A DNA stretch of 63,815 bases, counting the filler, from Craspedostauros australis (lineage: Eukaryota): the NCBI GenBank assembly GCA_030167865.1. It is 10 parts of 10 records of this genome, joined end to end, with 100 filler letters (N's around TTAATTAATTAA, not from the genome) between each part and the next. Parts side by side here need not be neighbours in the genome. Positions count along the whole stretch, not along the records: positions 9,281 to 15,626 come from JALAGF010004367.1; 9 more parts are not named here. One strand, 5' to 3'. The notes under the pieces were generated by a model that was given only the letters and a program-made list of their open reading frames with translations, did no database searches and had not been told where the DNA came from. The position numbers and the translations under genes are program-made. Each line of letters begins with the position of its first letter. Position 1 is the stretch's first letter. Positions 1,121-32,171 of the stretch are shown here, one piece after another.

Positions 1121-1282
1121 TGCAGAGTAATGCCATGCAATGTACAATTTCCAGATGGAACCAACTTCCGGAAGAAATTGTCACAGCAAATAAACCACGA
1201 ATAAACAAATTGAAGACAAACACCAAACAGCAAAAACAACCAGTAGAACAACGACGAAATGACGACGACGAGGAGCAGCAAG

Positions 1283-3871
1283 ATGACGCGTCCAACGGGC
1301 CAAATGCCGATGGAAGCGTATGTCAGAGGCGGCATCAACAGCAACAAGGCGAAGAGCAACAGACCAGGAGGAGTAGAGGAGAAGACAGGGCAAGACGCGA
1401 CGACGAACGGGGGCAAACAGGGCGAGAAAGATGGAAAGCAAGGACGAGGCGTTCGCAAGGTAGAATGCGCCGCAGGCAAGTACTGCAAGGGAAGAGGACA
1501 GGCAGCAGCAGCTGTGCGATGCATCATGTGCGGTGTACCGGCGCACAGGGAATGCAGAGCATGGATCAAGCCAGAAGAAGGCCTGGTGACACCAAGAGGA
1601 TTCCCAGTGGTGTGCACACAGTGCATCGAAAACGACAACATCACAGTGCAGGCAACGAAGGCAGGGCAGCGAAGTGTTGGAGCAGCAACAGAAGCAATAC
1701 GCAAAGCGTTGAGCAAGAAGTGGGGCAAGATGAAGGAGATCAAGGCAACGAAGGACAACAAAGATAAGGACAATAGAAAGCAAGATGGAGAAGAGGCAGG
1801 GCAACGACGTGACGGGACAAGCGGAGGAACGAACAAACCAAAGGAAGCGAAAGGAGGAGAGGACACGAGCAGCGACGAAGAGAACGAATGGGCGGACACG
1901 TGGGAAGAAGGAACCGGAGGGGACAACATGGCAGCGGAAAAGGGAGAAGAGACGGCAGATCAAGGAGGTAGCAAGAAAAGAACGGAAAGAAGCCCGCGAC
2001 ACTCAACGGCGGTGGAGCTGCCAGCCAAAAGAACGGACTTACGGGACGAGGAGCCAGAGGCGGAGAAGACGCAGGAGAAAGCACCGGAGGACGATGAAGA
2101 GACGACGAACATCATGCCAGCGACACCACAGGCAATTGGAGAAATCAGGCAGGACAACATTCACCCAACAATGGATTGTGACGATGAAACACAAGCTGGA
2201 AGCAACGAGAGCGGGATTGGAAGGAGCCGAGCACGAGAACGCGAAGCAATCGAGACACGCTACTGCGATGTACAGATGATGATCGAAGGCGGAGATGGTG
2301 CCAACGACGCAGGCACGGCGATCGACGCAGCTATTGCATCATGCAAAGAGTTCCTACGATCAATCCAACGGGTGAACGCAACAGCAAAATTGCTGCCTTG
2401 GAATCCCTACGAAGACCAAACGATTGTGCACGCAATGGAGTCATTCCCAACAGATATGACTAACCTGAAAAGGTTCTTCAAAGGAGTGAGGCCAATCTAC
2501 AAAGCGGCAAAAGAGAAAGGGTATTTGAAAGTCAAGATCAAAGCGAAAGGACCTATCAGCAAAATCACAGGAGAGCTGATGGACTACTTCCAACACATAG
2601 GAGGGAGGTTTGAAGTAGCGAAGATACAGGCCCCTTCTACAACAACGCTGGGCTGGCTCCTATACTCCACTCGACAGATCGATGCAGAAGCACTGGAGGC
2701 GGAACTCACAAAGTTAGCCAAGACCCAGGTAGCAATCACATGGAAGCGGATAGCAGACGGAGAGAAATACGATCCCAACAGGGACACGAAGAAGGACCCA
2801 AGGGCGCTTCACGTGGAATCCAGCACGGAGGATCGAGCACTAGTGGCCAAAGTACTGGAAGTGTACTACAGCACAAAGTCGAAGAAGTTCCCACTAGGAG
2901 TGAGAATGCGTATCATCACGCCATTATCCGGCATCGTCAACACAGACATGAGGAAAGGATGGTTCGAGCTACGCGAACGCCAAATGGAATGGTGCCTACA
3001 CGCGGTAGCGATGACGACCTACGACATCATCCCAGAGTGCTTGCAAGAGATTCCAGACGGCTCACATCTCACACTCAGAGAGATGGTGATGTGGATCAAG
3101 TCCACCACCGGCAACGAAAAGACGCCGCTCTTCACATCGATAGATAAGCAGTGGAGGGGCAACGGCTACGTGCTACAATTCCACCCAGACAAGACAGCGG
3201 AAGCAAGAATGGTGGTCAAAGGGCTGTTGGTCAAGTTGACTGCCGACTACGGAGAGGACGTGGAGCGACTGTTTACGTCCATGGCCCGGGTAGAAGCAAA
3301 GACGATGAAATGGGATGAGACCACAAAGAGAGTGATATCCGAAAAAGACAAGGAAGTGGAAGCAGCCATGGAGGTCGACGAAGACATGCATTTCCAGACG
3401 ACCAGAGAAGAAGATGAAGGAGACGAAGATGAAGAAGGGGAAAGAGGAGTCCCAATCAGAAGAGAGAAGGATTATGGAGATGACGACACAATCCCCTCGA
3501 TGAGAGACGCAGGCGCATGGAGAAAGGTTCGGGAAAAAAGAAGCGAAAAGAGGCGAGCGGCCCAGCAAGCACGAGAAGACGAAGGGTCGACAACATCAAC
3601 GATCACAGGGGCAAGTAGAAGCACGACGGGCACACAGAAGGAAAAGATGGCAGTGCTCCAAGAGCAGATGGGGAAGATTTTGGAAGCGCAAGCTCAAGGA
3701 TCAGTGACATCGACATTGTCGGGAAGTACCGGGCGAACCACCGGAACTACGCGAGCGCTGATGGCCGCCATGCAACAGCAAATGGAAGAGTTGAAACAGC
3801 TGGTGGTAACCACGAAAGCAGAGAACGAAGCGCTCAAGGCGGCAGAAAAGCCGGGAAAAACATTGGAGTAA
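1283..3871 (+). CDS. LINE ORF1 protein with N-terminal PHD-like finger and C-terminal coiled coil
   Basis: C4HC3 pattern CAAGKYC..CIMCGVPAHREC..CTQC. Colinear with the ORF1 at 57937-60756 (shared KIQA.STTT.GW, DPRALH.E, AKTMKWDE.TKRVISE). ATG 1283 chosen because its context gcagcaagATG is shared with the second copy. Confidence 0.85.
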   Translation: MTRPTGQMPMEAYVRGGINSNKAKSNRPGGVEEKTGQDATTNGGKQGEKDGKQGRGVRKVECAAGKYCKGRGQAAAAVRCIMCGVPAHRECRAWIKPEEGLVTPRGFPVVCTQCIENDNITVQATKAGQRSVGAATEAIRKALSKKWGKMKEIKATKDNKDKDNRKQDGEEAGQRRDGTSGGTNKPKEAKGGEDTSSDEENEWADTWEEGTGGDNMAAEKGEETADQGGSKKRTERSPRHSTAVELPAKRTDLRDEEPEAEKTQEKAPEDDEETTNIMPATPQAIGEIRQDNIHPTMDCDDETQAGSNESGIGRSRAREREAIETRYCDVQMMIEGGDGANDAGTAIDAAIASCKEFLRSIQRVNATAKLLPWNPYEDQTIVHAMESFPTDMTNLKRFFKGVRPIYKAAKEKGYLKVKIKAKGPISKITGELMDYFQHIGGRFEVAKIQAPSTTTLGWLLYSTRQIDAEALEAELTKLAKTQVAITWKRIADGEKYDPNRDTKKDPRALHVESSTEDRALVAKVLEVYYSTKSKKFPLGVRMRIITPLSGIVNTDMRKGWFELRERQMEWCLHAVAMTTYDIIPECLQEIPDGSHLTLREMVMWIKSTTGNEKTPLFTSIDKQWRGNGYVLQFHPDKTAEARMVVKGLLVKLTADYGEDVERLFTSMARVEAKTMKWDETTKRVISEKDKEVEAAMEVDEDMHFQTTREEDEGDEDEEGERGVPIRREKDYGDDDTIPSMRDAGAWRKVREKRSEKRRAAQQAREDEGSTTSTITGASRSTTGTQKEKMAVLQEQMGKILEAQAQGSVTSTLSGSTGRTTGTTRALMAAMQQQMEELKQLVVTTKAENEALKAAEKPGKTLE

Positions 3872-3976
3872 GGCCACAGAAGGTCCAGTGCACAACACAA
3901 ACCATCGGAACGGGTGACGACCGGGAAGAGGCGCACGAGATACAAACAGCTGAGGAACCGAGAGGGGACTCGGCGA

Positions 3977-6900
3977 ATGGTTAGACCAGCAGGGCAAGAG
4001 CAACAGTCAGTGGCAGCATGGCGACAGACTTGGAGCCCACAACAAGCGCCGGCGGATCGAGAGGTTATACCGCAACAGACCGACCGCGGAAGACGACGGA
4101 AGACGAACGAGGGTGGAAGGACGAACAGGGTGAGGAGGAGAATGCTAAGGAAGCAAGAAGGACAGCTGCGGGTAGGAGTGCAGAACTTTGGAGGACTGGG
4201 AAGACGACCGGGAGCAGTAGATGAAGGGTTGAAGAGGTGGATGAATGAAGGGGAGTTTGATGTATTCGGGATTACCGAGGTGAATGTGGATTGGAGGACG
4301 ACATCAGCGGAGCATACCCTGAAAGGCAGAACGCAAGAATGGTGGCCAACAGGGACGGCAGTTGCAAAAACAGCAAACAATCGAACGAGCGAGGCGACAG
4401 AAAGCAAGCAGTGGGGAGGAGTGGCGATGATCAGCAGATTCCAGGCCGCAATCAGAATCATGGGCCAAGGAGAAGATCCGACCAAACTAGGGCGGTGGGT
4501 ATGGCAGAGATACCGAGGGGCGAACCAACAGACACTCTGAGTGGTAGTGGCATATCGGCCATGTCGGCCAAGAAGCAAGGGGTTTCTCAACACGCATGCA
4601 CAACATCGGCGATACTTCAATGAGAAGAGGAAGGATAGAGAACCACGAATAGCGATGATAGAAGACCTTCAGAAAGCAATCCAGGCATGGAGATCAGAAG
4701 GTGATCATATCATAGTGGCAATGGATTGCAATGAAGATACGGACTCAACAACGATGCGCGAATTCAGAGAGAACACAGGACTACGTAACACCATGGAATG
4801 GGCGGGCAAGGACGTCAGTCGGTTACCAACACACCGACTGGGCAAAGTGCCCATAGACGGAGTATTCGCAACAGCAGGAGTACGGATTGAAGGCGCAGGA
4901 GTGAGCGACTGGGATGAAGGAATACAGCTGAGACAGGCTGATCACCGATGCCTATGGATCGACATCAGCATGGTGGCAGTGCTTGGACAATCGATGCCAG
5001 CACTCCGCAAAGCAGTGACGAGAAGAGTGAAAACAGAAGATCCAAGAATCGTGAAAAAATTCAACGAGGCATACGAGACTCATTTACGGCAACACAAAGC
5101 AAGGTCAAGAGCGTTCAGGTTGGAGAAGGATGCAAAGGAAAAGTGGACAGCGGGAATGGAGAAGGAAGCGGAAGCGTTCGATAGGATAAGAGTAGAAGGA
5201 ATTTGGAAAGCCGATGAGAAATGCCGCAGACTGCGGATGGGAGGCATACCGTATTCTAGAGAATACAAAAGAATCGAGGCACGCATCGGACTATGGAATA
5301 ATGTGGTGAGAAAGAGGAAGGGAGCCAATATCTCCTCAACGATGATGTCGAGGTTGGCGAAACGAGCGGGAGAAACAAGAAGAGTGAAGGAACTCATGAG
5401 ATGTGGCAGCGACGAAGTGGACAAGGAGCAAGCGGCGGCATATGCGGAGCTGAAGCAGTTCAGAGTGCGAGCGACGAATGCGCGAGAAAATTGGCTGGAG
5501 GGGTTGGCGGAAGCCAGAGGACTCGAGGAAGTCAGAAAGCGGGCAGAACAGAAAACGAACGACATGGGCGGCGCACAAGACATGAGCGCTGGAGCGGCAA
5601 CGGCACAACAACTACTCCAGCTGCGGAAGAAGGAAAGAGTACGAGCGACATATCGGAGAATACGCATGGCATCAGGCAACAACGCAACAGCAGGGATATC
5701 GATGGTGATCGCGCCCGACAGCAATGGGCAGTGGGTTGAGAGAACAGGCAAGGAGGAGATCGAGCGAGGGTGCATGGAGGAAAACAAGCGAAGGTTCCGG
5801 CAAACGGAAGAAACACCATTCATGCATGGGCAGCTTGCACGGGAGTTTGGATATCTGGGAGTAACAGAAGCCGCGGAGAAAACGCTCAGCGGGACGTATG
5901 AGCCACGACAATGGGTGGATGAAGGTGCCAAGAAACTTCTGGCAGGGTTGCGATCGGTCGCAAGCAGAAGCATTCCAGCGGGAATGACGACAGACGAATT
6001 CCAGCAAGGATGGAGGAAAGCCAAGGAAGACACATCGGCAGGACCATCAGGGATACACTTCGGGCACTTCAAGGCCATCGCATACCACCGAGGGAATTCG
6101 GAATTTGAAGCTAGTATGACATCGGTGGCGATGGTGAGCGGATACTCATACCAAAGGTGGAGGAAAGGCACGGATGTGGAATTGATGAAGAAGGCGAACA
6201 GTTTCCGAGTCGACAAGCTCAGAACAATCGTTCTATTTGAGGCTGACTTCAATTTTGCGAACAAAGCGATCGGAAGGAAGGCGGCCCACCAAGCGGAGCA
6301 ACAAGACAGGTTCGCGGAGGAACAATACGGCAGTCGGAAACGGCATCGGGCGATAGACCACGCGTTGAATAAGCAACTCACAATGGACTGGGCGAGGCAA
6401 ACACGAATACCAACGGTGTTGTGTACTAACGACCTGAAGAGTTGCTACGATCGGATTGTACATACGGTGGCGTCGATGGGATTGCAACGGCAGGGAATCG
6501 CACAGTCCAAAGTGGTGTGCATGTTCAGTACGCTCCAACAACTTGAGCACTACATCAGAACCGCATACGGCGAGTCCAGATTGACGTATGGCGGTAAAAG
6601 GTGGGTAGTGCCGATGCAAGGCATTTACCAAGGGAATGAAGCAGGCCCGGTCATATGGGCGGTTATCTCCTCACCAGTGCTGGACATTATGAAACGTGAA
6701 GGGCACACTGCCAGCTTCCGAACTGTGGTGAGCAATGAGGACGTCGAAATGGTGGGCTACGCATTCGTGGACGATACAGATCTAGTTGTGAATGCACGAG
6801 ATGGAGAAGACGTACAACAAACCATACAACGCATGCAACGAAGCGTGCAATCGTGGGAGAGCCTAGCAAGGGCAACTGGCGGAGCATTGGTCGTGGAGAA

Positions 6901-8804
6901 ATGCATGTGGTGGGCTGTCGATTTCAAGTGGAATGCGGACGGCACATGGAGATATGCCACGAACGAGGAGACGCCAGCTGCACTAATGATGAAGGGAACG
7001 ACAGGGATACCGCAGGCGATGCCAAGAAGCGGGTGCCATCAGGCGTTCGAAACGCTGGGAGTGAAGCTTGCGCCGGATGGCAATGACTCGGCGATCGAGA
7101 CAACGCTACGGAAAAAAGCGGAGCAATGGGTTGAGAAAGTGCGAACATGGCGCATGAGACAGGAAGACGCCGAAATTGCGGTGCGAACAGTGCTGATGAA
7201 GAAGCTGGAGTATGTGTTACCGGTGGCCCAATTGTCCAGAGCGCAGTGCAACGGCATTATGAATCCAGTGTGGAAGACTATGATGTCGAAAGTGGGCTTC
7301 AATAAGGGGTTCCCAAGGGAAATGGCGTATGCAACAGCGGGGTGGCTGGGAGCAGACATGCATGAGTTGCACACAACGCAAGTGGTGGAACACATGAAGA
7401 TGGTCCTTGAGCACGGCGAAAGGATGACAATGACAGGCAAGCTGATGAGAGGGAGCATACAAGCAATGAAGACAGAGGTAGGAGTGGGCACATCCTTATT
7501 TGAGATTGGATACAAGGAGTGGGAGTTCTTGGCGACAGCATGTTGGGTCAAGACCGTGTGGAGGGAAGCCAGTGAATGCGGCATCAAGATCCGGGAGAAG
7601 ACAGCAACGGCAGCGCTTGCACATGACAAAGATGAATGGCTCATGGTAGCTTTTCGCGATGCAGGCTACAGCAGGATGCAACAAATTCGGCTGAACCGAT
7701 GCCGAATTATCATGCAAGTAGTAAGCGTGGCAGACGTGATTGATGAGCGCCGCCAAAGAGTGATGGCCAGGCAACAATACAGCGATGAAGGCAAATGGCA
7801 AGGACGGCGGCACATCAGCTGGCCACGACAAGGCAAGGTACCGCGAAAGGACTGGAAGTTGTGGGACCAAGCACTCCGACGAGTGGCGACAACTGCACAG
7901 CAAGGGACGATGTGGGATATCACGAACGTCGGCGCAATACGCAGTGATGATGGAAAGATAATATGGGCGCGAGAGACGGCACACGAATGGCGACGATGGA
8001 ATGCAAGTGGCGGCAAGGCTTCAGGTGTTGCAGAGTACGTATGGTCGGGAGAAACGGCGAAGGAGCCGCCAGCAGACTGGAGGGTTGTCTATCTGCGGGA
8101 GCGATCAGAACGTCTGCGAGTTGTGGGCACAGGGGGCCGAGCAGGACGCCACGGAAACCAGCACAACATGCGGGTAAGACAGTCGGAGCAAAGGTGGCTG
8201 GAGGCGGTGCTCCAAGGCAAGGCGGTTATCAGTACCGATGGGTCGTACAAGAACGGACGGAGCACTGCAGCATACTCTCTCAACATCCAAGGGCAGAGGC
8301 GAGGCCAAGTGTCAGCAGCAAGCGCAGTCCCAGGGCGCGAGGAGGTGCAGAGTGCATACAGAGCAGAGATAGGCGGCATCCTGCAAGCCCTACGTAGGGT
8401 TGAGGCGATCATGGAGGCGCACGGGGCTGGCCAAGCGGTGCAAGGAAAGGAAATCATCGTCGCATGTGACAACAAGATGGCCGGGATTCATGCTGTGGAA
8501 TACACTCAGGATGTGGGCGTGTCGGTGCAACACTTTGACGTGCTCCGCGAAATCAGAAGTATCCAGCGGAGGTTGACAGTACAGCTGACATACAAGCACG
8601 TCTACAGCCATCAGCTTGAGCGAGACCGAGGCGTGAAGCAGGATGAGTATGCCGTGTGGAACGACAACGTCGATAAAGCCGCAGGGGCAGCTCAATCTGC
8701 AACGGCGGCGTATGAGGACAAAGAAATGTGCCACCAGGAATGGGCGATTTGGGTAGGCGGGAGAAAAGTGTGTACTGATACGACGTCGACACTACGAAGA
8801 TATA
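3977..8804 (+). pseudogene. LINE ORF2 (AP endonuclease, reverse transcriptase, RNase H) with in-frame TGA at 4538-4540
   Basis: APE motifs QNFGG, GITEVN, MDCNE, IDGVF, ADHR. RT motifs QYGSR, DLKSCYDRI, QGIYQG, YAFVDD. RNase H motifs TDGS, YRAEIGG, CDN, HVYSHQ, NDNVDKAA. TL*VVVAYRP corresponds to RLRVVTAYRP in the second copy. Confidence 0.9.
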
Positions 8805-9062
8805 TGTTGGCAAGTTCCGCTCACGGTAACCTACGATCGTGGAAGATGGTGTTGGTTGATAGTCGTTTGTTTACTATTTCATTACGTTGGCACTCCGATA
8901 CTCTCGGTGTCCGTTCGTTCTCTTGCCCGATGCTCTCGGCGCTTCAATCTGTGTCGTAGATTTGGTCTCCGACTATGAGTCGGTACGCGAGATCCTCTCT
9001 CGCTCCTCTCTGTATTCTCTCTCTCTCTCTCTCTCAACATCGTGTGCTCGTGCTACACAACA
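8805..9062. mobile_element. Putative LTR (copia-like TGTTG...CAACA ends) inserted into the LINE
   Basis: TGTTGG begins where LINE-like composition stops. CAACA occurs at 9035-9039 and 9058-9062, with a (CT)n tract inside. The partner end and TSD are not visible because the contig ends at 9180. Confidence 0.4.
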
Positions 9063-9180
9063 CTCCGTGTTCGATGCATACTCTGCATTCGACACTCTGT
9101 TCATTCAGTGCTGGCTTCTACTCCATGAGTACTTACCATTTGAAGTTCACCTTCAGTATCCATGATCTTCATGGGTCATC

Positions 9181-9280
9181 NNNNNNNNNNNNNNNNNNNN
9201 NNNNNNNNNNNNNNNNNNNNNNNNTTAATTAATTAANNNNNNNNNNNNNNNNNNNNNNNNNNNNNNNNNNNNNNNNNNNN
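9181..9280. other. Artificial contig linker (N44-TTAATTAATTAA-N44); also at 15627-15726, 21878-21977, 27632-27731, 30227-30326, 32072-32171, 38947-39046, 54174-54273, 62457-62556
   Basis: Identical 100-nt spacer with stops in all six frames, present nine times. Confidence 0.99.
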
Positions 9281-10139
9281 GCCTTGTGGACGGAGGCAAG
9301 GACCCAGGCTCCAGAGCAGATATCGGCGGCTTCCAAGAACAGACAGAACTGGAAGAAGATGTAGACAGTTGGATGGTCTCCGCGCTCCTCCTTTGGAAGC
9401 TTGGCAACAGCGAAGAAGGCGATCTGCATACCCTTGAGCATACCCACGATGGACATGAAGAGGAAGAAGAGGATGACGGCGACTCCATTTGGCACTCTGG
9501 CCCACATGGTGGTCTTTCCATCGAACAGGGCGACAAGGGTGATGGCCATGGCGTAGCACAGGATGGCGAGGGAGATGAGGATACGGCCCCAGTAGAAGAG
9601 GTTCTGGGCACCGTCGCGTGGTGGTTCCTTGGACTCGATTTCCTTGCCGGATGCCCAAACGAAGAACATCTGGACGAGGTAGAACGAATGCAGAAGTCCA
9701 GAGAACTCGATGGCGAGGGCGACATAGAGGGTGAAGACGGCAAAGAAGTTGTTGCTGTAGTCAAGCATCCAGAGAGAGGCGTTGCCTTGGGAGTTGAGCT
9801 GTCCGGCCATGGCGGCCATGAGGATCATGGCGGCTCCGGATCTGAGGAAGATCTGGATGATGATGTCTGGGAGACCGAAGACCTTGGTGTCCTCGAGCGG
9901 CACACTGCACTGGTTGATGGTGAATACCATGAGGAGGACCATGAACTGACGTCCCATGAGGCAGCGGTCAAGGTTGTCACCCTTGTGGGCAAGGGAGGTG
10001 CACTTGTGGCTGGTTGGGTGGGATTCTACATAGAGGTTGCGGTCGACTGGTGGGAGACCGACGAGGGACCCCTGTCCTCCCTCCACCATGTTGAGCCAGA
10101 CGAGGGCGGCGATCATGATGACGACAGCAACCACTGGGT

Positions 10140-10345
10140 TGAAAGAGCACTATCGAAAAATCATGAGGGGAGAGCAAAAGCAAAGTACCATGCCGGGATT
10201 CGAACCCGGAACCTCAGTTAGAATTACTGGTGCTCTACCGTTGAGCTACAGGCGTTGCGATTGCTGATCCGAACACAAGTGAAATTTATAGATAGTGGGG
10301 GCTACGGGAGTAACGTAATTTGCACTATACGTATTTGTGCTGATA
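10140..10345 (-). mobile_element. 206-bp solo-LTR-like insertion carrying a tRNA-like Pol III cassette, 5-bp TSD (TGGGT)
   Basis: TGGGT at 10135-10139 and 10346-10350. Removing the insert plus one TSD restores the SIT frame (KVHP-VVAVV). Ends TGAAAGAGCAC...GTGCTGATA form a partial inverted repeat. Confidence 0.85.
10186..10255 (-). ncRNA. tRNA-like sequence (non-canonical; not a normal decoding tRNA)
   Basis: D arm GCTC-AACGGTA-GAGC (A box) and T arm CCGGG-TTCGAAT-CCCGG (B box) are perfect. Anticodon-position stem CAGT/ACTG has the atypical loop AATTCTA, and the acceptor stem is imperfect. TATAAA lies ~30 nt upstream (10285-10290) and TTTT downstream (10176-10179). Confidence 0.8.
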
Positions 10346-12329
10346 TGGGTGGACCTTGGACGAGACCATGGTCTGCTCATTGAAGATGAGTCCGCAGACG
10401 ATGGCGATAAAGAAGATGAGGAGTCCAGTGGAGTACACCAACTTGACGAGCTGAATGGGATCCATGGTTACTTGGTTGGGGATGAGTTGGTGATGGTGAT
10501 TTGGTTTTGGTTTTGGATTGATTTCCGTTGTGTTGAGCTGAGCTACACTGAACTAAGTTGGCATGTGTTGATCCACAATTTGATTTTATGAGAGGAGAGA
10601 AAGAGAAGTTTGATGCGGTCGCAATTATAGCAACATCAGCAACAGCAGCAACAGCAACAGGAACAGGAACAGCAGCAGTGGTAGCGGCAGCGCGAAACAC
10701 GCACGCGATCACCCTCATGGGCATTCAAGCAAGGGAAGGTCCAACTCGCACAGCGGGCGAAGGAGCCACAAAGTCTGCGCGCACACTACGAGCAGGTCAC
10801 ATGCAAAACATGGCAAGTCAGGTGACAGGGGAATGGCGCAAACCATATCCACTTCCGTTTCGTTCACATCGTCTGATCACAGCTTGCTGCGCCGGCGCAG
10901 CGATCACAGAAGAGAAAGGGATGAGGCTGCAGACGAGGAGACATCTTCACCACGAAACGCACGCGGTTCTTCCCTGCCATCTCGTCACGCGAAGGGACGA
11001 ACGAGGAAGCCGTCATCCTGCACTAAATCATCCAGCTCCAGGCGCCATGGCCATGGTTATTCGGAAAAGACTGCGAATGAAGGATCTGATCACAAGAACA
11101 GCCCGCCACAAGCTCAGCAATCATCGACACCGAGTCCAGTACACTCGAAGAAGCCCAAGAGCGCAAGGATTCCATGGGCTCCATCTCTTCCTCGCCAGCA
11201 TGCTTGCTGCCGAGATTCCAGGTGGTCCAGGAGTTAGAAAGGGAATGTTCACGAAGCAGAATCAGGGGGAAGGGGGCAAAGGGCAGGCCTGGATCATGTC
11301 TCCAAGTACAAGTATACGCATTGGCCATCCAAGGATGTTTGGCAGGCTAACAAGAAATGATACTTCGCGTTGGGGTACAAACTTACGAACATGTCAAAAA
11401 GGCATACATACGTAGCTCTGACAGAGTGTGATTGGGAGGGAGAGCAGGCTCAGCAGAGCAAACGTCAGCAGCGATATGAAGGTTATAGTACAGGAGGATG
11501 CTGCAGAGTAACGTAGTCCCATTCCTCTCCAACAATACACGATCAAGATCAACGCAGCGGCACATTGAAGTATCTTCCCACTCAGCTGCTGCTGCTTGCC
11601 CTCTGAGGGTGTGTGGTGCGAACAGGCGCGGCCTCCATTGCGTTCGCTCTGAGAATGGGTGACACGAGAGAAGTATTCTTGAGTAGCACCGAGGATCATC
11701 TGTGGCGGAGCCATGTCGATACAACAACTCCACTCGTACATACTCCGCGATGATGTGGCTGCAACACGAGCCTTTGATGAGCAGGGATGCTCTTGCTGGT
11801 GCGCCTGGGCGTGTTTGTGTTGTGTGGAGTTTCCCCACGAACTGGTTCTCATTTCACGCCGAAGAAGAGAACGTGCACACGAAAGCGAACTGTCACGTTT
11901 GAGAACATAACACAACTCGATAGACGACATTGTCCGATAAAACGGGACAGGAATACGAACAAGTGTTCGTCGAACTCTGTATTGCCACGATGAAGGGCCA
12001 GACGGAAGATATGTCGCACAGTGTATTCGTAACAAGCCAGCAACAAAACAAGAGACAGAACGGTTCGCTGTGGCCGTGACGAATGGCGATGCACGAAAGA
12101 GAGAACGAGGAGACCTCTTCGAGGGTAGAGAATACCATGGAGTACGTCCACGTATTGTACTAGAGAAGCACGAATGGTGGTCGTGGTGTTGGTGACATCA
12201 TCGCAGACTATGTCGGATCGGGTTGAGGAGGAGCGGCGGTCAAGAGAGACACAGAGGCAGAACAGTCCTGTATTCTGCCCCATCGTGGTCCTCGATTTGG
12301 TTGTTCTCGTCTCGTTACGGTACCAAAAT

Positions 12330-12330
12330 G

Positions 12331-12365
<35 letters not shown>

Positions 12366-12391
12366 GTCAATCGAGAGAGAGAGAGAGAGAG
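12330..12391 (+). repeat. Microsatellites (TCAA)n and (GA)n
   Basis: Visible tandem repeats. Confidence 0.9.
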
Positions 12392-12903
12392 TATGTTAGA
12401 TGGTATGGACAGGCGACCACGATGGCAAACTGTCCCGGTGGGAAAAGGCATGGAATTGAAGAGAAACTAAGAATTATTGGCGCAGAACACGGTGCCTTGC
12501 GCGACGCACGTCATCGCTGCTAGTGCCCCGTCTAACGCCTCAATAAACGATAATAACGTCAGCGTCTCCTTGACGGAACCGGATGGAATGAATGCGGTTC
12601 TTCTGACTGTGGTCGGTTTGTGGCTGTCCATCCGCGAAACTTCGTCGAAGAACATGATCGAGATCTTTCGAATTCCAACGAAGCCATCTTCTGTGATCGT
12701 CACTATCACCGCCGGAGTTCCGGTGATGTCCAGGGGCGTTTCGTTCAACTCTCTGCACTGTTTCGCGCCCACATACGAGGACTTGTGATTGTGCTTGCGC
12801 TATCACACCAACAGCATCTTTCTCGTTCTTTCCCCATGTGTTTCTTTGACCAACCATCCTGATCAGCTCACAAGAACAATCATACAACAAACAAAAGCGT
12901 AAC

Positions 12904-12904
12904 C

Positions 12905-12938
<34 letters not shown>

Positions 12939-12997
12939 ATACTACGACTACTACAACTACTACAACTACTACAACTACTACAACTACTCCACCAACA
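12904..12997 (+). repeat. (CAA)n / (CTACAACTA)n microsatellite immediately upstream of the SDR start codon
   Basis: Visible tandem repeats ending just before ATG 13001. Confidence 0.9.
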
Positions 12998-13000
12998 ATC

Positions 13001-14012
13001 ATGACCACTCAAGAAGGCAAGATCTATCTGATTACCGGCGCCAGCTCCGGGATGGGCAAGGACGCTGCCCTGTATCTGGCCTCCAAGAATGCCAAGGCTC
13101 TCGCCCTTGTCTCCCGCAGCAAGGATCGTCTCCAGACCGTCGCAGATGAGATCAGCAAGGCGCACCCGAACACCAAGACCCTCGTCGTCGCCGGCGATGC
13201 CTCGTCGGCTGAAGACACGAAGCGCGCTGTCGATGAGACTGTGTCAACCTTTGGCGGCATCCATGGCGCCTTCATCAATGCTGGTGCCTACCGCGGAGGG
13301 GAAATGATCCCTGAAGTGTCTGATCAAGATATTGATGATCTTTTGGACATGTAAGTATTGGCAGCATCCATCAGTATGACCAATACTTGCATTTGTACAT
13401 ATCATGCACGAGATATGATCCTCGTACACGTGCATCCACATCAACGCTCACACTTCGCATCTACTAAACTATACTACACTATTCTACTTTCTTCTCTTCG
13501 TCCTCAATCGCATTTTTCTACCATATTTATACTCGCGCCATACTCGTGCCATGCTCATTTACAGCAACGTGAAGGGCGTCATTTACGCCATGCGATATCT
13601 GATTCCAGCCATCAAGAAGACCGTGGGTGAGGACGGACCAACGGGATCGATCGTCGTGAACAGTAGCTGCGCGGGACAGGCGGTGATCGGATCAAAGAGT
13701 GCTGGCTCCGCCATCTACTCGGCATCCAAGGCATTCGTGAACTCCCTTGTCGAGACTGCCGCAGTTGAGAATGCTCCACGCATCCGCGTCAACGGCGTGC
13801 TGCCAGGCGTTGTGCAGACGAACATCATGCCCGTGGATGATGCCACGTACCAGGCCGTCGGCGCCGCCGTGCAGCCATTGTGGGGCCGACCAGGCAAGGC
13901 GAGGGAGATCTCCCCCTTGGTCTCTTTCCTGCTTTCGGATGAAGCATCTTTCATTTCTGGAACCAACGTGAAAGCCGACGGTTTGTGGTCCTTGTCCGGA
14001 GGTGGCATGTAA
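13001..14012 (+). CDS. Short-chain dehydrogenase/reductase (classical SDR); exons 13001-13350 and 13565-14012
   Basis: TGASSGMG, NAG, YSASK and IRVNGVLPG motifs. GTAAGT..CAG intron joins in frame (DI/NVKG). Confidence 0.93.
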
Positions 14013-14549
14013 GTGCGACACTCGTTGAATCGAGCAGAACAATTGTATGAGAACAACCGAACGACAGCATTAAGCGAAGCAAAAGCAATAAAGTAGATAC
14101 TAACCTCTTTAGTCGTACTCACGAAGAGGTATAGAGTCCTCCAGTACCAAGGACAGCTATCTATTCCATTAATACGTCCTGTTCATGAGGCGATGCCTGT
14201 GTACTGCAAGAGAAGTGACGTGTTGAGTAACTATTGTTCTGTTGACAACAATTATCGTGGAGTATTGGCACTGTGGTGTACTCGCTATGTCCTGTACGGA
14301 GCGAGCTCAATGATACTTCAAGTACTTCGCTCCTGATATCATGTCGCCTCAGTTCAATTCATGTGCGGTGATCTGTTGTGACAGGTACGTGTAGATGCCA
14401 TCTCACTTTGCCTCTCTTGCAGGAAAGCGGCGCCATGATCTGAGATTCACGATGCATCTCGAGATGCCATCGGCGGCGTGATGTATTTGTGTTGGTGTGT
14501 CGATGTGACGCACTGTGGTCGCGCCTCAATGCGCCAAGTGTCAATGTGC

Positions 14550-15626
14550 TCACTTCTGCACACCCATCTCCTCGTCACTCTCGGCAGCACTGTCGTTCTC
14601 CTCCTGGTTCAGCTTGTTCATGGCGGCTGTCTCCGTACAAAGGGCAGACTCAAAGACGGCGGCGGCGTCGTCGTTGCTGCACGAATTGATCTCCTCACGG
14701 AGTCCCTTGATGTTCGACAGGATGCGCTCGCGGCGGACGGAGTACGACTCATTCCGTGCGGCGAGATCCTTCTGGAGCTCGAGGTATTTCTTTGGAACGG
14801 CAGTGGCACCGGCCTCATCCACAAGCACGTTGGTTCTCACATGCAGGTTTCGGTTGCTCTGGTGGTCTGGCTTCATGCCGGCGGCACGCTCCTCTGGAGT
14901 GCCAAAGTACACCTCATCGAGCTGGAAGCCCGAGACGGCCTTGTGGACGGAGGCAAGGACCCAGGCTCCAGAGCAGATATCGGCGGCTTCCAAGAACAGA
15001 CAGAACTGGAAGAAGATGTAGACAGTTGGATGGTCTCCGCGCTCCTCCTTTGGAAGCTTGGCAACAGCGAAGAAGGCGATCTGCATACCCTTGAGCATAC
15101 CCACGATGGACATGAAGAGGAAGAAGAGGATGACGGCGACTCCATTTGGCACTCTGGCCCACATGGTGGTCTTTCCATCGAACAGGGCGACAAGGGTGAT
15201 GGCCATGGCGTAGCACAGGATGGCGAGGGAGATGAGGATACGGCCCCAGTAGAAGAGGTTCTGGGCACCGTCGCGTGGTGGTTCCTTGGACTCGATTTCC
15301 TTGCCGGATGCCCAAACGAAGAACATCTGGACGAGGTAGAACGAATGCAGAAGTCCAGAGAACTCGATGGCGAGGGCGACATAGAGGGTGAAGACGGCAA
15401 AGAAGTTGTTGCTGTAGTCAAGCATCCAGAGAGAGGCGTTGCCTTGGGAGTTGAGCTGTCCGGCCATGGCGGCCATGAGGATCATGGCGGCTCCGGATCT
15501 GAGGAAGATCTGGATGATGATGTCTGGGAGACCGAAGACCTTGGTGTCCTCGAGCGGCACACTGCACTGGTTGATGGTGAATACCATGAGGAGGACCATG
15601 AACTGACGTCCCATGAGGCAGCGGTC
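14550..15626 (-). CDS. SIT: Silicon transporter (SIT), 3' part with C-terminal coiled coil; same internal deletion
   Basis: GRQ, GQLNSQ, GMQIAFFAV, LFLEA..ICSGAWVLA, GFQLDEVY.GTPEER. Identical to 9281-9969 over the overlap. Confidence 0.88.
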   Translation of the reverse strand, partial: DRCLMGRQFMVLLMVFTINQCSVPLEDTKVFGLPDIIIQIFLRSGAAMILMAAMAGQLNSQGNASLWMLDYSNNFFAVFTLYVALAIEFSGLLHSFYLVQMFFVWASGKEIESKEPPRDGAQNLFYWGRILISLAILCYAMAITLVALFDGKTTMWARVPNGVAVILFFLFMSIVGMLKGMQIAFFAVAKLPKEERGDHPTVYIFFQFCLFLEAADICSGAWVLASVHKAVSGFQLDEVYFGTPEERAAGMKPDHQSNRNLHVRTNVLVDEAGATAVPKKYLELQKDLAARNESYSVRRERILSNIKGLREEINSCSNDDAAAVFESALCTETAAMNKLNQEENDSAAESDEEMGVQK

Positions 15627-15726
15627 NNNNNNNNNNNNNNNNNNNNNNNNNNNNNNNNNNNNNNNNNNNNTTAATTAATTAANNNNNNNNNNNNNNNNNN
15701 NNNNNNNNNNNNNNNNNNNNNNNNNN

Positions 15727-19507: not shown

Positions 19508-19754
19508 TGTCAACAGCTATCTGTCCGTATGGAGATGGATGGTTGATTGGATGGTTATGTGAAGAATTGATGATGGATGATGATGGATGAAGATGGGCGA
19601 TGACGATGGGAGGTGTTGCCCAGAACGCAAGGTGTTGAGGTGTTGAGGTGTTGATGTGTTGGTGTGTTGGTGTGTTGATGTGGCTGTGTTGTTTGTCTGT
19701 TGTGATCTCACAGTCCCGTGACCCTTCCACCGTTGAAGACGTACGTAGGACCAG

Positions 19755-21877
19755 TACAAAATTTCTCACGTAGAACCTGTAGAAACAGTACTAGAACAAA
19801 ATCCTGAACAATGGTGCGCACCGACGCACAAAACCGTTCTGGCACAAGCAACCAGACCACTCATTCGACATTGACAATGGCACGAGGACGATCAGGAAGA
19901 GGAGGGCGTCAGGCCCGTGGCACTAGCTCCAGAGGAGGAGGCCGCGGCGGTAAGCGACAGTCCAGAGACTCTCCGGGCAAAAAGACGGCGAAAACGTGCC
20001 CCTCTGAAAACGAGAACCGTTGGATTTGGAGCCACCAGCACGAGCGAAGCTGGGGAGACGTTCTTCGCGAGCGCAACCTGATGACACGAGGCTACGAGCC
20101 TTTCCTGGCAGCGACCGGGGAAGAAGGAGCATTGGACGAGACGATCGCCTTTGTCAAGGAGATGAGGGACGACCTGGCGAATGGAGCATCCTTCCCACAG
20201 TGGAAAGAGCTTTTCAGTGATGCCTACGATAACAAGCTCCCCGCGGAGTCCAACCTGGTGATGATCCAAATCATGGTGAGACTGTTGGCGACTTCGAACA
20301 TCTTCTCGTCAGCGCTGTGGAAACTGGGGCAGATCCGATCCACCCATGAGACTGCGGCATGGATCGCCGCCAGAACCGTCTTCATGGAAGTCAAGGGCAT
20401 CCATCTGGACAACGACGACGAAGAAGTACCACAAGCCAGCTCCCCGAATCCAACGTCCAAGAAGAAATCGCGTACGCCAAGACACAAAGTGAAGGCTTAC
20501 CCGCGAAAAAACCCACAAGCGCGGGAACTGGTCAGCGTCAACGACGTGCTCAGCGAATACCATAAGACGTTCTTCGACGTGCGACTGCCAATGTCAAGGG
20601 AAGGCAGCGACACCCCTCTCACACAGGTCATTGCAGGACTCAACACCCTGCGAGCGTTCATCTTCCGCGCAGACTCCAAGTCTCAGATACTGGCATGGCG
20701 GAAAAGCAGGGAGCTACGCCCATGGACTGCAGCGGACGTCGCATGGACCAATCGGGAGACCCTGAAGCAATTCGTGGATAGCCTCTACGCGCGTACGGGC
20801 TTCATGACCTACACCCAAATCTGGGTTGCTCACAAAAGGGACCTCGAGGTCTTTGACGACGACGGTACACTCGCAGCGGCCGCGATCTCCTTCAGGAAGT
20901 CAGATATCCAGGAGCATAACATCATGGCGGCGGGCTGGCTCTTCGGGAGCCACAGCACCATGAACACGGATGATCTGGCTGAGGTGATCAACGATCACGA
21001 ACTCGTGAAGAACCACTGTGTGGTCCAGCTCCGCATCCGCGAGATCCAGCTGGTGAAGAGACGAGGACGGCGCTCTGAGTTGGATGACTTCCGCAGCAGG
21101 CCAAGGGCAACCCACATCATGTGCGGTGAATCGAAGTCCACGGTATGCCGAATCGCGATGAAAGACATGTTCAACAATCGAGCGGACACGGTGAGACTTC
21201 TTGGGAAGCAAATGCGGTTCATGCCGGATGCCCTCGACCAGCGATTCCACCATCCCCCCTCCGAGTTGGCAAATCTCAGCTCCATGGTAGCACACCAGAC
21301 CGCGTTCGAAAAGAAAATGGTCACCCAAGGGGTCTACTCTATCATGCAGCTGGACGTGGAAGTCCCAATTTGGAGATTGACACTGCGGGAAGTCATCATG
21401 AACCTTCGGTCGTTCGACAATCCGGACTATACATTGTTCGTGTCCGTTGATACGGACAAGTTTGATCGCAATCGCACTTTCTTCGTCTTTCACCCCAAAC
21501 GACAAGTCGAAGCAAGGGAACTAATCTCCAAGTTGCCCTTCTTCTGCAGCAAGAAGCTTGATCACAAGTGTCAAGGCTGGTTTACCCCAGAGGCCTGGGC
21601 CCAAAACGAATTCTACGAGGTAGACTGGGAGACTGGTCTGGTTCGGAGCAAAGAAGAGCTTGAAATGGGGCAGCTCGCGCAAGCAGGCGCTCACTTTCTG
21701 GACCTTGACGAAGATGAGATGGTCGGGCTGTCAGCCGAGGACGTGGGATGGGAAGGCTATGTGGACGAACACGGGAACATGAAGCCGGTTCCTCTTCTGA
21801 AGTTCGAAGTAGAAATGACGGCCAATCCCAGCACCCAGAACGGCGACAACGGAACAGTCGCGACGTTCGCCACAGCC
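19755..21877 (+). mobile_element. 5' part of a third, divergent LINE; ORF1 from 19811 open to the contig end
   Basis: ORF aligns by eye with the other ORF1s (IQ......GWL, RA.H, LTLRE..M.., LF.S.D, FHP....EAR, W/F....A......D..T..V.S). RG-rich N-terminus with no PHD. 5' motif TACAAAATTT. Confidence 0.75.
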
Positions 21878-21977
21878 NNNNNNNNNNNNNNNNNNNNNNN
21901 NNNNNNNNNNNNNNNNNNNNNTTAATTAATTAANNNNNNNNNNNNNNNNNNNNNNNNNNNNNNNNNNNNNNNNNNNN

Positions 21978-27631: not shown

Positions 27632-27733
27632 NNNNNNNNNNNNNNNNNNNNNNNNNNNNNNNNNNNNNNNNNNNNTTAATTAATTAANNNNNNNNNNNNN
27701 NNNNNNNNNNNNNNNNNNNNNNNNNNNNNNNAC

Positions 27734-30226
27734 TGTGACGATGGCAGAGCAGCATACTACATCGGCGAATGCAAGTTTCGACACATGGGCAACAACTTTG
27801 GAATCCCCCAAACAGTTCATATCGCCAAACATGACGAAGCGCCAGATTCCAGCGTTGTTCGTGTCCTCTTCTCCGGCAGCGGCACAGGCAAGACAGTTGA
27901 GCTGGCGACAAGCTCAGAGTCAAGAAATGCGACCATCACTCTGATGCACGAAGCAGATGGTGACATAGCGATGAGGGAACCAAACGGAGATCGAACGAAT
28001 CAGTGCCGAACCTATTTGAAGAGATGGGTGGATACTGACTTCGCATACAACGGTGAGGTGCTATCAACGATCGTAACCACGGTGCAGCAGCGGTTGCGTA
28101 CACTCAAGAAGAATCAAGGCGGGGGCAACGCGGTTGGCGACGATGAACACCCGAATGTGAACGACAACAGGATTCGGATAGTGCTTGCCATCGATGAAGC
28201 ATCGAAGTGTCCCAATCTTGCGAGAGAGATCATCAAAAACTATGATGACCTTGGAAGAGACCTTGGTCACTACATCATGAACAATGGGTCTGGAGGCGCG
28301 AAGGAAGGAGACAGCACGGATCATGGTGGACTCCCAGCAACCGAAACCCCGTCAGCCATCGAGGTGGTCTTCTCTATCGCAGGCACAGGAATGTACCGTG
28401 GGATTGCCGGTTCTCCAAGCAAAAACTTCGTCTGTCTTGACTCCAGCGCCAAAAAGGATCCCAAACAAACGTACGAAGCCCTTTGCAAGGAATACAACGA
28501 ACGAAGATGGCAAAGGCGCAAGCTCCCCACCTACAAGAAGATGATGGAGACGCCATTCCTGAGCATCATCGCAACACACAATGCAAGGATGACGTCCATC
28601 TTCATCAACCAGCTGGCAGAATCGATGTTGAAGATCGGCAACCCGGATGATGACATGAGGCTGATCTCGTTCGTGTTCACCAAGTTTCTACGATGCAATG
28701 GCTTTTCCACCCTTCGGACTGGTACGACAGAAGGAGCCAGCAAACAAGCTCTGGCAGTGGCACGAGTCCTGGCCATTGCTCTGTATCAAGAGGAACTCGA
28801 AGTGCCCATGGATATCGAGACAGCAAAGGAACGCGCGAGGAGACTCGACTATGGAATCGAGTTCGAGAGGTTCGGAACGAACGACATCAACATCATGTAC
28901 CATCTCGTCACGAGGTATGGACTGGTGGTACCAGTGCCTTTCGAGACATTCGACCACGTTGTGATGGATGAGGATGGGAATACTCAGGTGGATCCAGCAT
29001 TCACGCAGCCGAAGAGCCTGAAGAAGCCATACTTGGTGGATGAAGCCATTCAACTGCTGTGTGTGTGGCTGTTGGAGGGTGGAAAGCGGTTGGAGGGCAG
29101 CTATGACTTTCTTGGAAGGACTCTGCTTCCCTTCGAGGCGTTGTCGACGCAGATCGTCGGTTCTGCCATCACTGCAGCCACGACGGTCGCACAACAGAAA
29201 CGGAAACACATCCAATCCATTCTGAAGGATACCCTCAACATGCAGCCCAAATCGTCCAGCGGCAAGACAGACCCTGACAACAGGGCAGACCCTGACAACA
29301 AGACAGACCACGTGCAAGAGGCATGGGATGGTCTGGAAGATGTGATTCCTGTCTCTGTTTGGTCTGACTTTGCGTTGAATGGAATGTACCATCAGCAGTC
29401 TGAAATGAGTCTCAACGAACCGACCATACCAACAAAGCCCGAGAACTTTGAAGAGATGACCACAGCTCAGGTCATGGAGTGGATGGAAACCGAGAAGAAC
29501 GAACGTCTCAATGCCCGGGAGGCTCGCATGCGGCTGAACCGTTGGGACGGGTTGGAAACAAAGCAAGTCGATCCAAACTTTGGCAGCAATCCTCGTGAAC
29601 TGATCTCGGAATTGGACACACTCGACGGCTTCGATGCTTCATGTCAGGAGACCGCGGTGCCAACTTTCGACATGGACAAGAAGCTGACAGGTGGTCTTCT
29701 CAAGATGAGGGAGGCATGCGGCCATCTTGAGAAAACGATCAGGGAGACAGAAGCGCCCCAATTCAATCCAACCAAACAGAATTTCTGTCCATCACTCACA
29801 ACTGTGGCTGAGGGATCGAGCAACCTTGCGGATGGATACATTTCCACTGCTGGCGTGAGGAAGATCACAAACAGCGCAGGTAAATTCTTGAGATGGGAAG
29901 TGGGACTCTTCACGGTCTGCGTCCAAGGCAAAGATATGTTCGATTCCAGCACAATTGACTACAAAGATATCCGCGATATCAGAGACAGGATTCACCACAG
30001 CCTCCTTAACATCATGTTTGGCTTGAATCGGTTGTACTGCGTTGCAGGCATGCAAGACAAGCTTGCCATGAATACAGCGCCACCCGAAGACGATGAGGAA
30101 GACGACGATAACAGTGACAGCGACAACGGAACATCCCTTTACGCAGGTTTTCCGACCGATGTGAGTCCACTGTTGAGTGAATCGATGGACAAGCTCGACA
30201 ATCATCGCAGGCGTAGTCGGAAGACC
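27734..30226 (+). CDS. P-loop NTPase with putative C-terminal restriction-endonuclease-like domain; both ends truncated
   Basis: Walker A SGSGTGKT, Walker B IVLAIDEA, AGTG and NARM motifs. C-terminal LADGYI...VCVQGKD. Intronless ORF of more than 800 codons. Confidence 0.7.
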
Positions 30227-30328
30227 NNNNNNNNNNNNNNNNNNNNNNNNNNNNNNNNNNNNNNNNNNNNTTAATTAATTAANNNNNNNNNNNNNNNNNN
30301 NNNNNNNNNNNNNNNNNNNNNNNNNNAC

Positions 30329-32071
30329 TGTGACGATGGCAGAGCAGCATACTACATCGGCGAATGCAAGTTTCGACACATGGGCAACAACTTTGGAATC
30401 CCCCAAACAGTTCATATCGCCAAACATGACGAAGCGCCAGATTCCAGCGTTGTTCGTGTCCTCTTCTCCGGCAGCGGCACAGGCAAGACAGTTGAGCTGG
30501 CGACAAGCTCAGAGTCAAGAAATGCGACCATCACTCTGATGCACGAAGCAGATGGTGACATAGCGATGAGGGAACCAAACGGAGATCGAACGAATCAGTG
30601 CCGAACCTATTTGAAGAGATGGGTGGATACTGACTTCGCATACAACGGTGAGGTGCTATCAACGATCGTAACCACGGTGCAGCAGCGGTTGCGTACACTC
30701 AAGAAGAATCAAGGCGGGGGCAACGCGGTTGGCGACGATGAACACCCGAATGTGAACGACAACAGGATTCGGATAGTGCTTGCCATCGATGAAGCATCGA
30801 AGTGTCCCAATCTTGCGAGAGAGATCATCAAAAACTATGATGACCTTGGAAGAGACCTTGGTCACTACATCATGAACAATGGGTCTGGAGGCGCGAAGGA
30901 AGGAGACAGCACGGATCATGGTGGACTCCCAGCAACCGAAACCCCGTCAGCCATCGAGGTGGTCTTCTCTATCGCAGGCACAGGAATGTACCGTGGGATT
31001 GCCGGTTCTCCAAGCAAAAACTTCGTCTGTCTTGACTCCAGCGCCAAAAAGGATCCCAAACAAACGTACGAAGCCCTTTGCAAGGAATACAACGAACGAA
31101 GATGGCAAAGGCGCAAGCTCCCCACCTACAAGAAGATGATGGAGACGCCATTCCTGAGCATCATCGCAACACACAATGCAAGGATGACGTCCATCTTCAT
31201 CAACCAGCTGGCAGAATCGATGTTGAAGATCGGCAACCCGGATGATGACATGAGGCTGATCTCGTTCGTGTTCACCAAGTTTCTACGATGCAATGGCTTT
31301 TCCACCCTTCGGACTGGTACGACAGAAGGAGCCAGCAAACAAGCTCTGGCAGTGGCACGAGTCCTGGCCATTGCTCTGTATCAAGAGGAACTCGAAGTGC
31401 CCATGGATATCGAGACAGCAAAGGAACGCGCGAGGAGACTCGACTATGGAATCGAGTTCGAGAGGTTCGGAACGAACGACATCAACATCATGTACCATCT
31501 CGTCACGAGGTATGGACTGGTGGTACCAGTGCCTTTCGAGACATTCGACCACGTTGTGATGGATGAGGATGGGAATACTCAGGTGGATCCAGCATTCACG
31601 CAGCCGAAGAGCCTGAAGAAGCCATACTTGGTGGATGAAGCCATTCAACTGCTGTGTGTGTGGCTGTTGGAGGGTGGAAAGCGGTTGGAGGGCAGCTATG
31701 ACTTTCTTGGAAGGACTCTGCTTCCCTTCGAGGCGTTGTCGACGCAGATCGTCGGTTCTGCCATCACTGCAGCCACGACGGTCGCACAACAGAAACGGAA
31801 ACACATCCAATCCATTCTGAAGGATACGCTCAACATGCAGCCCAAATCGTCCAGCGGCAAGACAGACCCTGACAACAAGACAGACCACGTGCAAGAGGCA
31901 TGGGATGCTCTGGAAGATGTGATTCCTGTCTCCGTTTGGTCTGACTTTGCGTTGAATGGGATGTACCATCAGCAGTCTGAAATGAGCCTCAACGAACCGA
32001 CCATACCAACAAAGCCCGAGAACTTTGAAGAGATGACCACAGCTCAGGTCATGGAGTGGATGGAAACCGAG
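30329..32071 (+). CDS. Second allele or paralog of the P-loop NTPase ORF, truncated
   Basis: Identical for ~1.5 kb, then SNPs and loss of one 18-bp DPDNRA repeat unit. Confidence 0.7.
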
Positions 32072-32171
32072 NNNNNNNNNNNNNNNNNNNNNNNNNNNNN
32101 NNNNNNNNNNNNNNNTTAATTAATTAANNNNNNNNNNNNNNNNNNNNNNNNNNNNNNNNNNNNNNNNNNNN

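Follow-up and report, generated by a model that had tools for sequence, protein, structure and literature searches.

A discrete insertion with a 5-bp target-site duplication is located in a coding exon of a silicon transporter gene of Craspedostauros australis (NCBI GenBank assembly GCA_030167865.1). The inserted DNA is 206 bp long, interrupts the reading frame of the transporter and carries a tRNA-derived core in its middle. Our favoured interpretation, which is held tentatively, is that the insert may be a solo long terminal repeat (LTR) of an element similar to Helenus (TRIMp3), a terminal-repeat retrotransposon in miniature (TRIM) that carries an RNA polymerase III (Pol III) promoter. The stretch of DNA analysed, called the window here, has 63,815 bases and consists of ten contigs, with a 100-base spacer (N44-TTAATTAATTAA-N44) between each one and the next. 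Features on opposite sides of any spacer are not implied to be neighbours in the genome. The insert-bearing contig is the second of the ten (9281-15626, 6,346 bp) and its GC content is 52.7%. The features that define the insertion are as follows, with positions counted along the window.

10135..10139, no strand assigned: target-site duplication copy 1, TGGGT on the plus strand (direct reading)
10140..10345, minus strand (oriented by the tRNA-like unit): mobile insert of 206 bp, excision of which restores the conserved protein
10346..10350, no strand assigned: target-site duplication copy 2, TGGGT on the plus strand (direct reading)
10346..10465, minus strand: silicon transporter upstream of the insert, first 40 codons (M...VHP), from the reading frame and the homologue alignment
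9281..10134, minus strand: silicon transporter downstream of the insert, coding as far as the contig end (9281-9969 identical to 14938-15626)
14550..15626, minus strand: transporter frame continued at the opposite contig end, to the stop at 14550 (Pfam Silic_transp)

From its ATG at 10465, the minus-strand transporter gene reads to ...SSKVHP at 10346 in the upstream frame, and a stop is reached 10 codons into the insert. A second frame, which opens within the insert, encodes the remaining protein from 10134 (VVAVV...) to the contig end. The C-terminal part of the transporter scored 409.7 bits against the Pfam family Silic_transp (PF03842), a significant family match. A homologue search with the transporter gave 809 matches at E<=0.001, the best of them with 58-65% identity, and the named homologues among the 120 matches listed were all from diatoms. 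The top HMMER match, P0001, was rejected as a close relative, being an internally duplicated transcript model. The junction was inspected in an alignment of the first 130 residues of 10 homologues chosen from the 120 listed. It was gap-free in all nine homologues that span it, where ..HP is directly followed by the next hydrophobic helix. The two transporter pieces of the window meet exactly at this junction with neither gap nor overlap, and excision of 211 bp (the insert and one TGGGT) rejoins the conserved protein. Therefore, the TGGGT duplication is not a chance repeat. Since the bases bordering the two TGGGT copies differ, the length of the target repeat is exactly 5 bp. The sequence-only reading of this DNA had described a 206-bp insert between perfect TGGGT duplications whose removal restores the transporter frame, and the alignment bore this out. 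As oriented by its tRNA-like unit, the insert lies in sense relative to the transporter gene. Its GC content is 45%, compared with 52.7% for the whole contig. Otherwise, the two transporter frames stay open across about 453 codons, and therefore the insertion is probably young.

On the minus strand the insert begins with TATCAGCAC and finishes with GTGCTCTTTCA, which gives the termini TA...CA; on the plus strand the ends read TG...TA. A 5-bp inverted pair, AGCAC/GTGCT, is situated near the ends of the insert at unequal distances from the two. These termini and the subterminal pair had been pointed out before, and direct reading agreed with both. In this single copy the 5' end is one transition away from TG and the 3' end is CA; read in either orientation, the ends differ from TG...CA by one base. 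A 7-bp direct repeat near both ends, ATAGTGC, was considered as a nested duplication and was rejected; by a rough estimate about one such repeat is expected by chance in 206 bp. The interior of the insert contains the following elements.

10285..10290, minus strand: TATAAA, about 35 nt before the tRNA-like unit begins (direct reading; putative function)
10191..10250, minus strand: tRNA-derived core (pseudo-tRNA), RF00005 at 35.4 bits
10238..10248, minus strand: box A-like motif, TAGCTCAACGG, fitting TRGCY...YGG (direct reading)
10196..10206, minus strand: box B-like motif, GGTTCGAATCC, with GGTTC (direct reading)
10156..10160, minus strand: run of five T residues (T5), possible Pol III terminator (direct reading; putative function)

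The core occupies a central position, with 95 nt preceding it and about 50 nt following it, and there is no tail. The T5 run is placed about 31 nt beyond the core and 16 nt before the insert end. The upstream TATAAA and the downstream T-run of the sequence-only reading are both present. The core matched Rfam RF00005 with 35.4 bits against a threshold of 29, over model positions 6-65 of 71; no other tRNA-like Rfam match was obtained in the window, whether the gathering threshold or E<=1 was applied. A weak match to YrlA (17.2 bits, with the threshold at 69) was rejected. Pairing is perfect in the 4-bp D stem and the 5-bp T stem, and both box A and box B are intact. Four of five positions pair in the anticodon stem, and three of seven in the acceptor stem. 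Position 33 in the anticodon loop is A, where tRNAs have U. ARAGORN found no tRNA in the window, and none in the element at the default, -ps or -ps80 settings. With -ps70 and introns allowed it proposed a 'tRNA-Thr with a 73-nt intron', which is built from unrelated parts and was rejected as spurious. Thus, of the cloverleaf that had been claimed, the D and T arms stood as perfect, whereas the acceptor stem (3/7), the A at position 33 and the ARAGORN result did not support it. The rest of what the sequence-only reading described proved correct. The full cloverleaf, the 7-bp acceptor stem and the canonical anticodon loop of a functional tRNA gene were not found in the core. Judged by these motifs, the core is a tRNA-derived promoter module and no tRNA gene. 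As a whole, the element shows no remarkable RNA fold (z -1.76), and 9 of 200 shuffled sequences folded equally well.

The closest described design is that of Helenus. According to the available passages of Kojima 2024 (PMC10886601), Helenus elements (TRIMp3) are TRIMs with tRNA-derived sequence in their LTRs and with a PBS (primer binding site) and a PPT (polypurine tract) between the LTRs. The same passages give target duplications of 5 bp for the fungal and plant elements and of 4 bp for the animal ones, 4-6 bp overall, and state that boxes A (TRGCY...YGG) and B (GGTTC) are conserved while the tRNAs are mostly non-functional (PMC10886601). They also record some families known from solo LTRs alone, solo LTRs with 5-bp duplications, a 120-bp LTR, and fungi, animals and one plant as hosts (PMC10886601). 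The account of Helenus in the sequence-only reading is consistent with these passages. The insert was likened to Helenus by description and motifs. It has the tRNA boxes (RF00005 at 35.4 bits; TAGCT...CGG and GGTTC) and no working tRNA, it has a 5-bp target duplication as in the fungal and plant families, and its repeat unit is short. The length of 206 bp is within the size range of LTRs, and a central core without a tail fits an LTR better than a short interspersed nuclear element (SINE). On the other hand, the insert has no second LTR, PBS or PPT in the window and is at best a solo LTR; its ends are TA...CA, and its host is a silicifying stramenopile. The text of Kojima 2024 (PMC10886601) contains no occurrence of diatom, stramenopile or oomycete. 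In the literature search, TRIMp3 in the transposon sense was not found outside Kojima 2024, and nothing relevant was found that linked diatoms with TRIMs or non-autonomous LTR retrotransposons.

Other known systems share parts of this design. Cassandra and Ajax are TRIMs with a Pol III promoter derived from 5S rRNA in the LTR, recorded from plants and nemerteans in the available passages of Kojima 2024 (PMC10886601). They have a small-RNA promoter in the LTR in common with the insert. However, their promoter is 5S-derived while that of the insert is tRNA-derived, and Rfam showed nothing 5S-like in the insert. In the diatom Phaeodactylum tricornutum, putative TRIMs or large retrotransposon derivatives (TRIM/LARD, 27), SINEs (13) and miniature inverted-repeat transposable elements (MITEs, 235) have been annotated, according to the part of Rastogi et al. 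2018 (PMC5859163) that was available. By description, these resemble the insert as short non-autonomous elements in a diatom; in that part, however, no LTR bearing a tRNA is mentioned (PMC5859163).

As a solo LTR of a Helenus-like element, the insert could have originated as follows. A short non-autonomous mobile element would have integrated recently into the beginning of a transporter coding exon in sense orientation. The integrase of an autonomous LTR retrotransposon would have carried out the insertion, which would have left the 5-bp duplication of a staggered cut and broken the reading frame of the transporter. Later recombination between the two LTRs would have left a single LTR. The core in the middle would be a decayed tRNA copy that keeps only what Pol III needs, namely boxes A and B, the TATA-like motif and the T5 run, and it may be transcribed by Pol III. 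Since only these promoter parts appear to be retained, selection may have acted on the promoter function of the core rather than on its tRNA function. The disrupted gene copy would be tolerated since further transporter copies would exist. The assignment to a solo LTR of a TRIM family, which the sequence-only reading had also made, is sustained in part. The 5-bp duplication, the size and the central tRNA module agree with it, whereas the TA...CA ends and the absence of a second copy, PBS and PPT from the window do not.

Several observations weigh against a solo LTR. LTR termini are expected to be TG...CA. The single copy has TA...CA (TG...TA on the other strand), and no shift of the element boundaries within the 5-bp repeat yields TG...CA ends. 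The T5 run inside the presumed LTR would tend to halt a Pol III transcript in the 5' LTR. No second copy of the element, whole or partial, was found by BLASTN in the 63.8-kb window, where the best other match has 18 nt (E 0.43). A partner LTR, a two-LTR copy, a PBS and a PPT were not found in the window either. A profile scan with a cut-off of E<=0.001 covered 60 of the 138 open reading frames (ORFs) of at least 130 aa, the other 78 being overlaps in alternative frames. No integrase, RVT_2, Copia/Gypsy-type reverse transcriptase, gag or transposase was found among the 60 scanned ORFs. The only autonomous elements seen in the window were three that resemble long interspersed nuclear elements (LINEs). 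Finally, one contig of a public run, which may be a second copy, has other explanations.

The overlap of this run, X1, with the stretch is small (share 0.11); the run was compared as contigs only, and its type, RNA or DNA, is a guess. Its transporter contigs are about 88-90% identical to the window over 9281-10900, and therefore X1 comes from a related organism. A 226-nt contig of X1 matches 10196-10345 with 7 differences (about 95% identity). The match ends exactly at 10345, with 76 nt of the contig left over. From its sequence, this contig suggests that another locus has a second copy ending at the same terminus. Equally, it could represent the donor locus, or a diverged paralogue that carries this insertion. 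The summed contig depth of X1 is 292 over 10145-10198, compared with 37 for the 226-nt contig, which covers the 5' part, and about 30 for the gene, although summed depth is not copy number. No joint across the insert and no X1 contig bridging 10128-10364 was found among the listed pieces (8 of 43, and 6 of 23 loose ends), which is uninformative on an empty site or on splicing. The loose end expected behind 10345 was not among the 6 of the 23 loose ends listed. Exact-pattern scans with three 22-30-nt stretches of the element gave 0 matches in metagenome contigs, viral contigs and prokaryote genome contigs, from which the organism is probably absent, given that the best transporter homologue has no more than 58-65% identity.

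The LINE-like elements of the window are listed below.

1247-8956, plus strand: LINE-like element 1, contig 1, with RVT_1 in the last ORF
54276-60834, minus strand: LINE-like element 2, contig 9, with RVT_1 and Exo_endo_phos in ORF 54276-57971 and an upstream 965-aa ORF
19808-21877: 5' part of LINE-like element 3, with an ORF 22% identical over 407 aa to ORF1 of element 1 (E 2e-6)

The three ORFs of element 1 (1247-3868, 3872-4537 and 4541-8956) are in one frame and are split only by TAA and TGA. The element is either a single frame of 2,570 codons that contains two in-frame stops or a copy that was disabled very recently. Its ORF 4541-8956 was considered as a neighbour of the transporter and was rejected, as it sits on a different contig. 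Elements 1 and 2 are 66.6% identical in DNA, and the 3' end of element 2 is cut off by the contig end. Over 3,999 bp, contigs 3 and 4 have 99.4% identity; full divergence sets in at 19709/19710 and 25976/25977, respectively. Past the divergence, contig 3 leads into the LINE-like ORF 19808-21877 and contig 4 into an Apg6/Beclin gene. By sequence, one haplotype or copy seems to have a LINE insertion that the other lacks. Because element 3 occurs in only one of two near-identical contigs, LINEs may have been recently active in this genome sample, and therefore a LINE-dependent origin of the insert stays alive.

Such an origin is nevertheless unlikely. The insert would then be a retroposon, either SINE-like or the 5'-truncated copy of a longer non-LTR element, or of a composite SINE, that has a tRNA-like module inside it, integrated through target-primed reverse transcription by the endonuclease and reverse transcriptase of a LINE. 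Three LINE-like elements, one of them apparently recent, are found within 63.8 kb, where no LTR-type machinery was seen, and tRNA-derived Pol III promoters are the usual head of a SINE. The X1 depth of 292 over 10145-10198 would suit 3'-biased copies, with the same reservation that summed depth is not copy number. However, the 95 nt ahead of the tRNA-like unit would be missing from a SINE RNA made by Pol III. The insert has no A-rich, simple-repeat or LINE-like tail. Its local alignments with the LINE 3' region at 8957-9180 scored 13 and 17, compared with shuffle means of 16.0 and 17.1, which amounts to no similarity, although the contig of element 1 ends before the LINE 3' end is certain. Under random 5' truncation, the identical 5' terminus of the X1 contig is unexpected. 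A 5-bp duplication is also short for the target-primed mechanism. The tRNA-derived SINEs (SINE2) resemble the insert in their promoter with A and B boxes, in their small size and in the presence of LINE-like elements in the same genome sample. In the insert, however, the tRNA part stands 95 nt off the 5' end instead of forming the head, and the sequence finishes with GTGCTCTTTCA, unlike an A-rich or simple-repeat tail and unlike the visible LINE 3' region. The statement of the sequence-only reading that a central tRNA part and a missing tail set the insert apart from a conventional SINE thus remains valid.

It is quite unlikely that the insert is a non-autonomous DNA transposon of the MITE type, or an element of an unclassified mechanism, which contains a tRNA-derived segment by chance. 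The boundaries are sharp, the duplication is short and fixed, and the 5-bp AGCAC/GTGCT inverted pair lies near the ends; 235 MITEs have been reported in the diatom P. tricornutum in the available part of PMC5859163. However, there is no real terminal inverted repeat, since the usual terminal repeat of about 10 bp or more is absent and the 5-bp subterminal pair is unequally offset. The whole element folds unremarkably, and no transposase family was found among the 60 scanned ORFs. To our knowledge, few DNA transposon superfamilies produce 5-bp duplications, which also counts against this explanation.

To a similar degree, a one-off capture is improbable. In that case a fragment of another locus, be it a tRNA pseudogene together with its flanks or a piece of organellar DNA, would have been pasted into a staggered double-strand break in the course of its repair, and no mobile family would exist. 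The single copy in the window agrees with this, and with its TATA motif, tRNA-like unit, terminator and flank the insert resembles a small gene locus. The 226-nt X1 contig could be an orthologous donor locus, in which the similarity stops where the captured fragment stops. However, a clean 5-bp duplication with neither filler nor deletion would be more typical of an integrase or a transposase. The core is already degenerate in a seemingly young insertion, and this agrees more closely with a retroelement that keeps only the promoter than with the copying of a functional nuclear or organellar tRNA gene. The summed depth of X1 over the 3' part, which is not a copy number, is several-fold above that of the gene.

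The structure of the transporter contig has a bearing on the number of gene copies. Both ends of the contig are 100% identical over 689 bp (9281-9969 and 14938-15626). Therefore, a 5,657-bp unit, composed of the transporter and a short-chain dehydrogenase gene on the opposite strand, forms a tandem repeat, or is circular in the assembly graph, or represents collapsed paralogues. The identical ends suggest tandem or collapsed transporter paralogues, and the interrupted copy may be one of several. The dehydrogenase gene has one intron, readable as GTAAGT...TTTACAG at about 13351-13564. Upstream of the transporter start, a microsatellite of the CAG/CAA type at 10614-10690 reaches a summed depth of 1,381 in X1 with many loose ends, which is a repeat artefact.

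12863-14009, strand opposite to the transporter: short-chain dehydrogenase gene with one intron

Whatever the class of the insert, it might act as a new intron, so that the gene would be functional with 10 extra residues, as in introners; this is very unlikely. Among the GT/GC...AG pairs listed around the insert, 11 keep the frame without a stop, and one of the 11 has both sites inside the element.

10150..10330, minus strand: hypothetical GT...AG intron of 181 nt, wholly inside the insert (frame-keeping, stop-free pair)

The candidate donor is at 10330 (TAC/GTATAG) and the candidate acceptor at 10150 (TTTTTCGATAG/TGC), the slash marking the splice site. Splicing would remove 181 of the 211 added bases and leave 30 nt, that is, ten codons without a stop. 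A pyrimidine-rich run precedes the acceptor AG, the insert is in sense orientation, and the transporter frames are otherwise intact. The identical contig ends hint that the unit carrying the insert may be repeated. In the available part of Gozashti et al. 2025 (PMC12130899), solo-LTR introners are reported, and solo LTRs are described as making working introns in Panicum virgatum. The insert resembles introners as a transposable-element insertion in a coding exon that is possibly spliced out. In the insert, however, splicing is a frame-compatible possibility, and no family of intron-forming copies was seen. The donor GTATAG matches poorly with the dehydrogenase intron of the same contig. One frame-keeping pair within 206 bp is not unlikely by chance, given 11 pairs within the chosen bounds. 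A membrane helix may not tolerate ten added residues at its beginning. That the insert is both a TRIMp3/Helenus-type LTR copy in a silicifying stramenopile and an intron generator, with 181 nt spliced and ten extra residues, is highly improbable.

Two further contig pairs of the window have common starts. The contigs 27732-30226 and 30327-32071 are 98.7% identical over 1,763 bp, and 32172-34097 and 39047-41062 are 91.3% identical over 2,023 bp. These pairs suggest that both haplotypes or recent duplicates were kept in the assembly. The spacers between the contigs, all of the form given above, are at the following positions.

9181-9280, spacer
15627-15726, spacer
21878-21977, spacer
27632-27731, spacer
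30227-30326, spacer
32072-32171, spacer
38947-39046, spacer
54174-54273, spacer
62457-62556, spacer

The present state is one well-defined insertion of uncertain class, and not yet a new family. The insert can be used as a seed for a genome-wide search. If it is of the Helenus type, LTR retroelements with a Pol III promoter would be extended from fungi, animals and one plant to stramenopile algae. Such elements would also supply additional tRNA-like sequences by which the number of tRNA genes counted in diatom genomes is inflated. In this insertion, nature has provided a clean knockout of one silicon transporter copy or, possibly, a recently formed intron. Either way, it is relevant to the remodelling, by mobile elements, of the multi-copy family of transporters that underlies silica cell walls.

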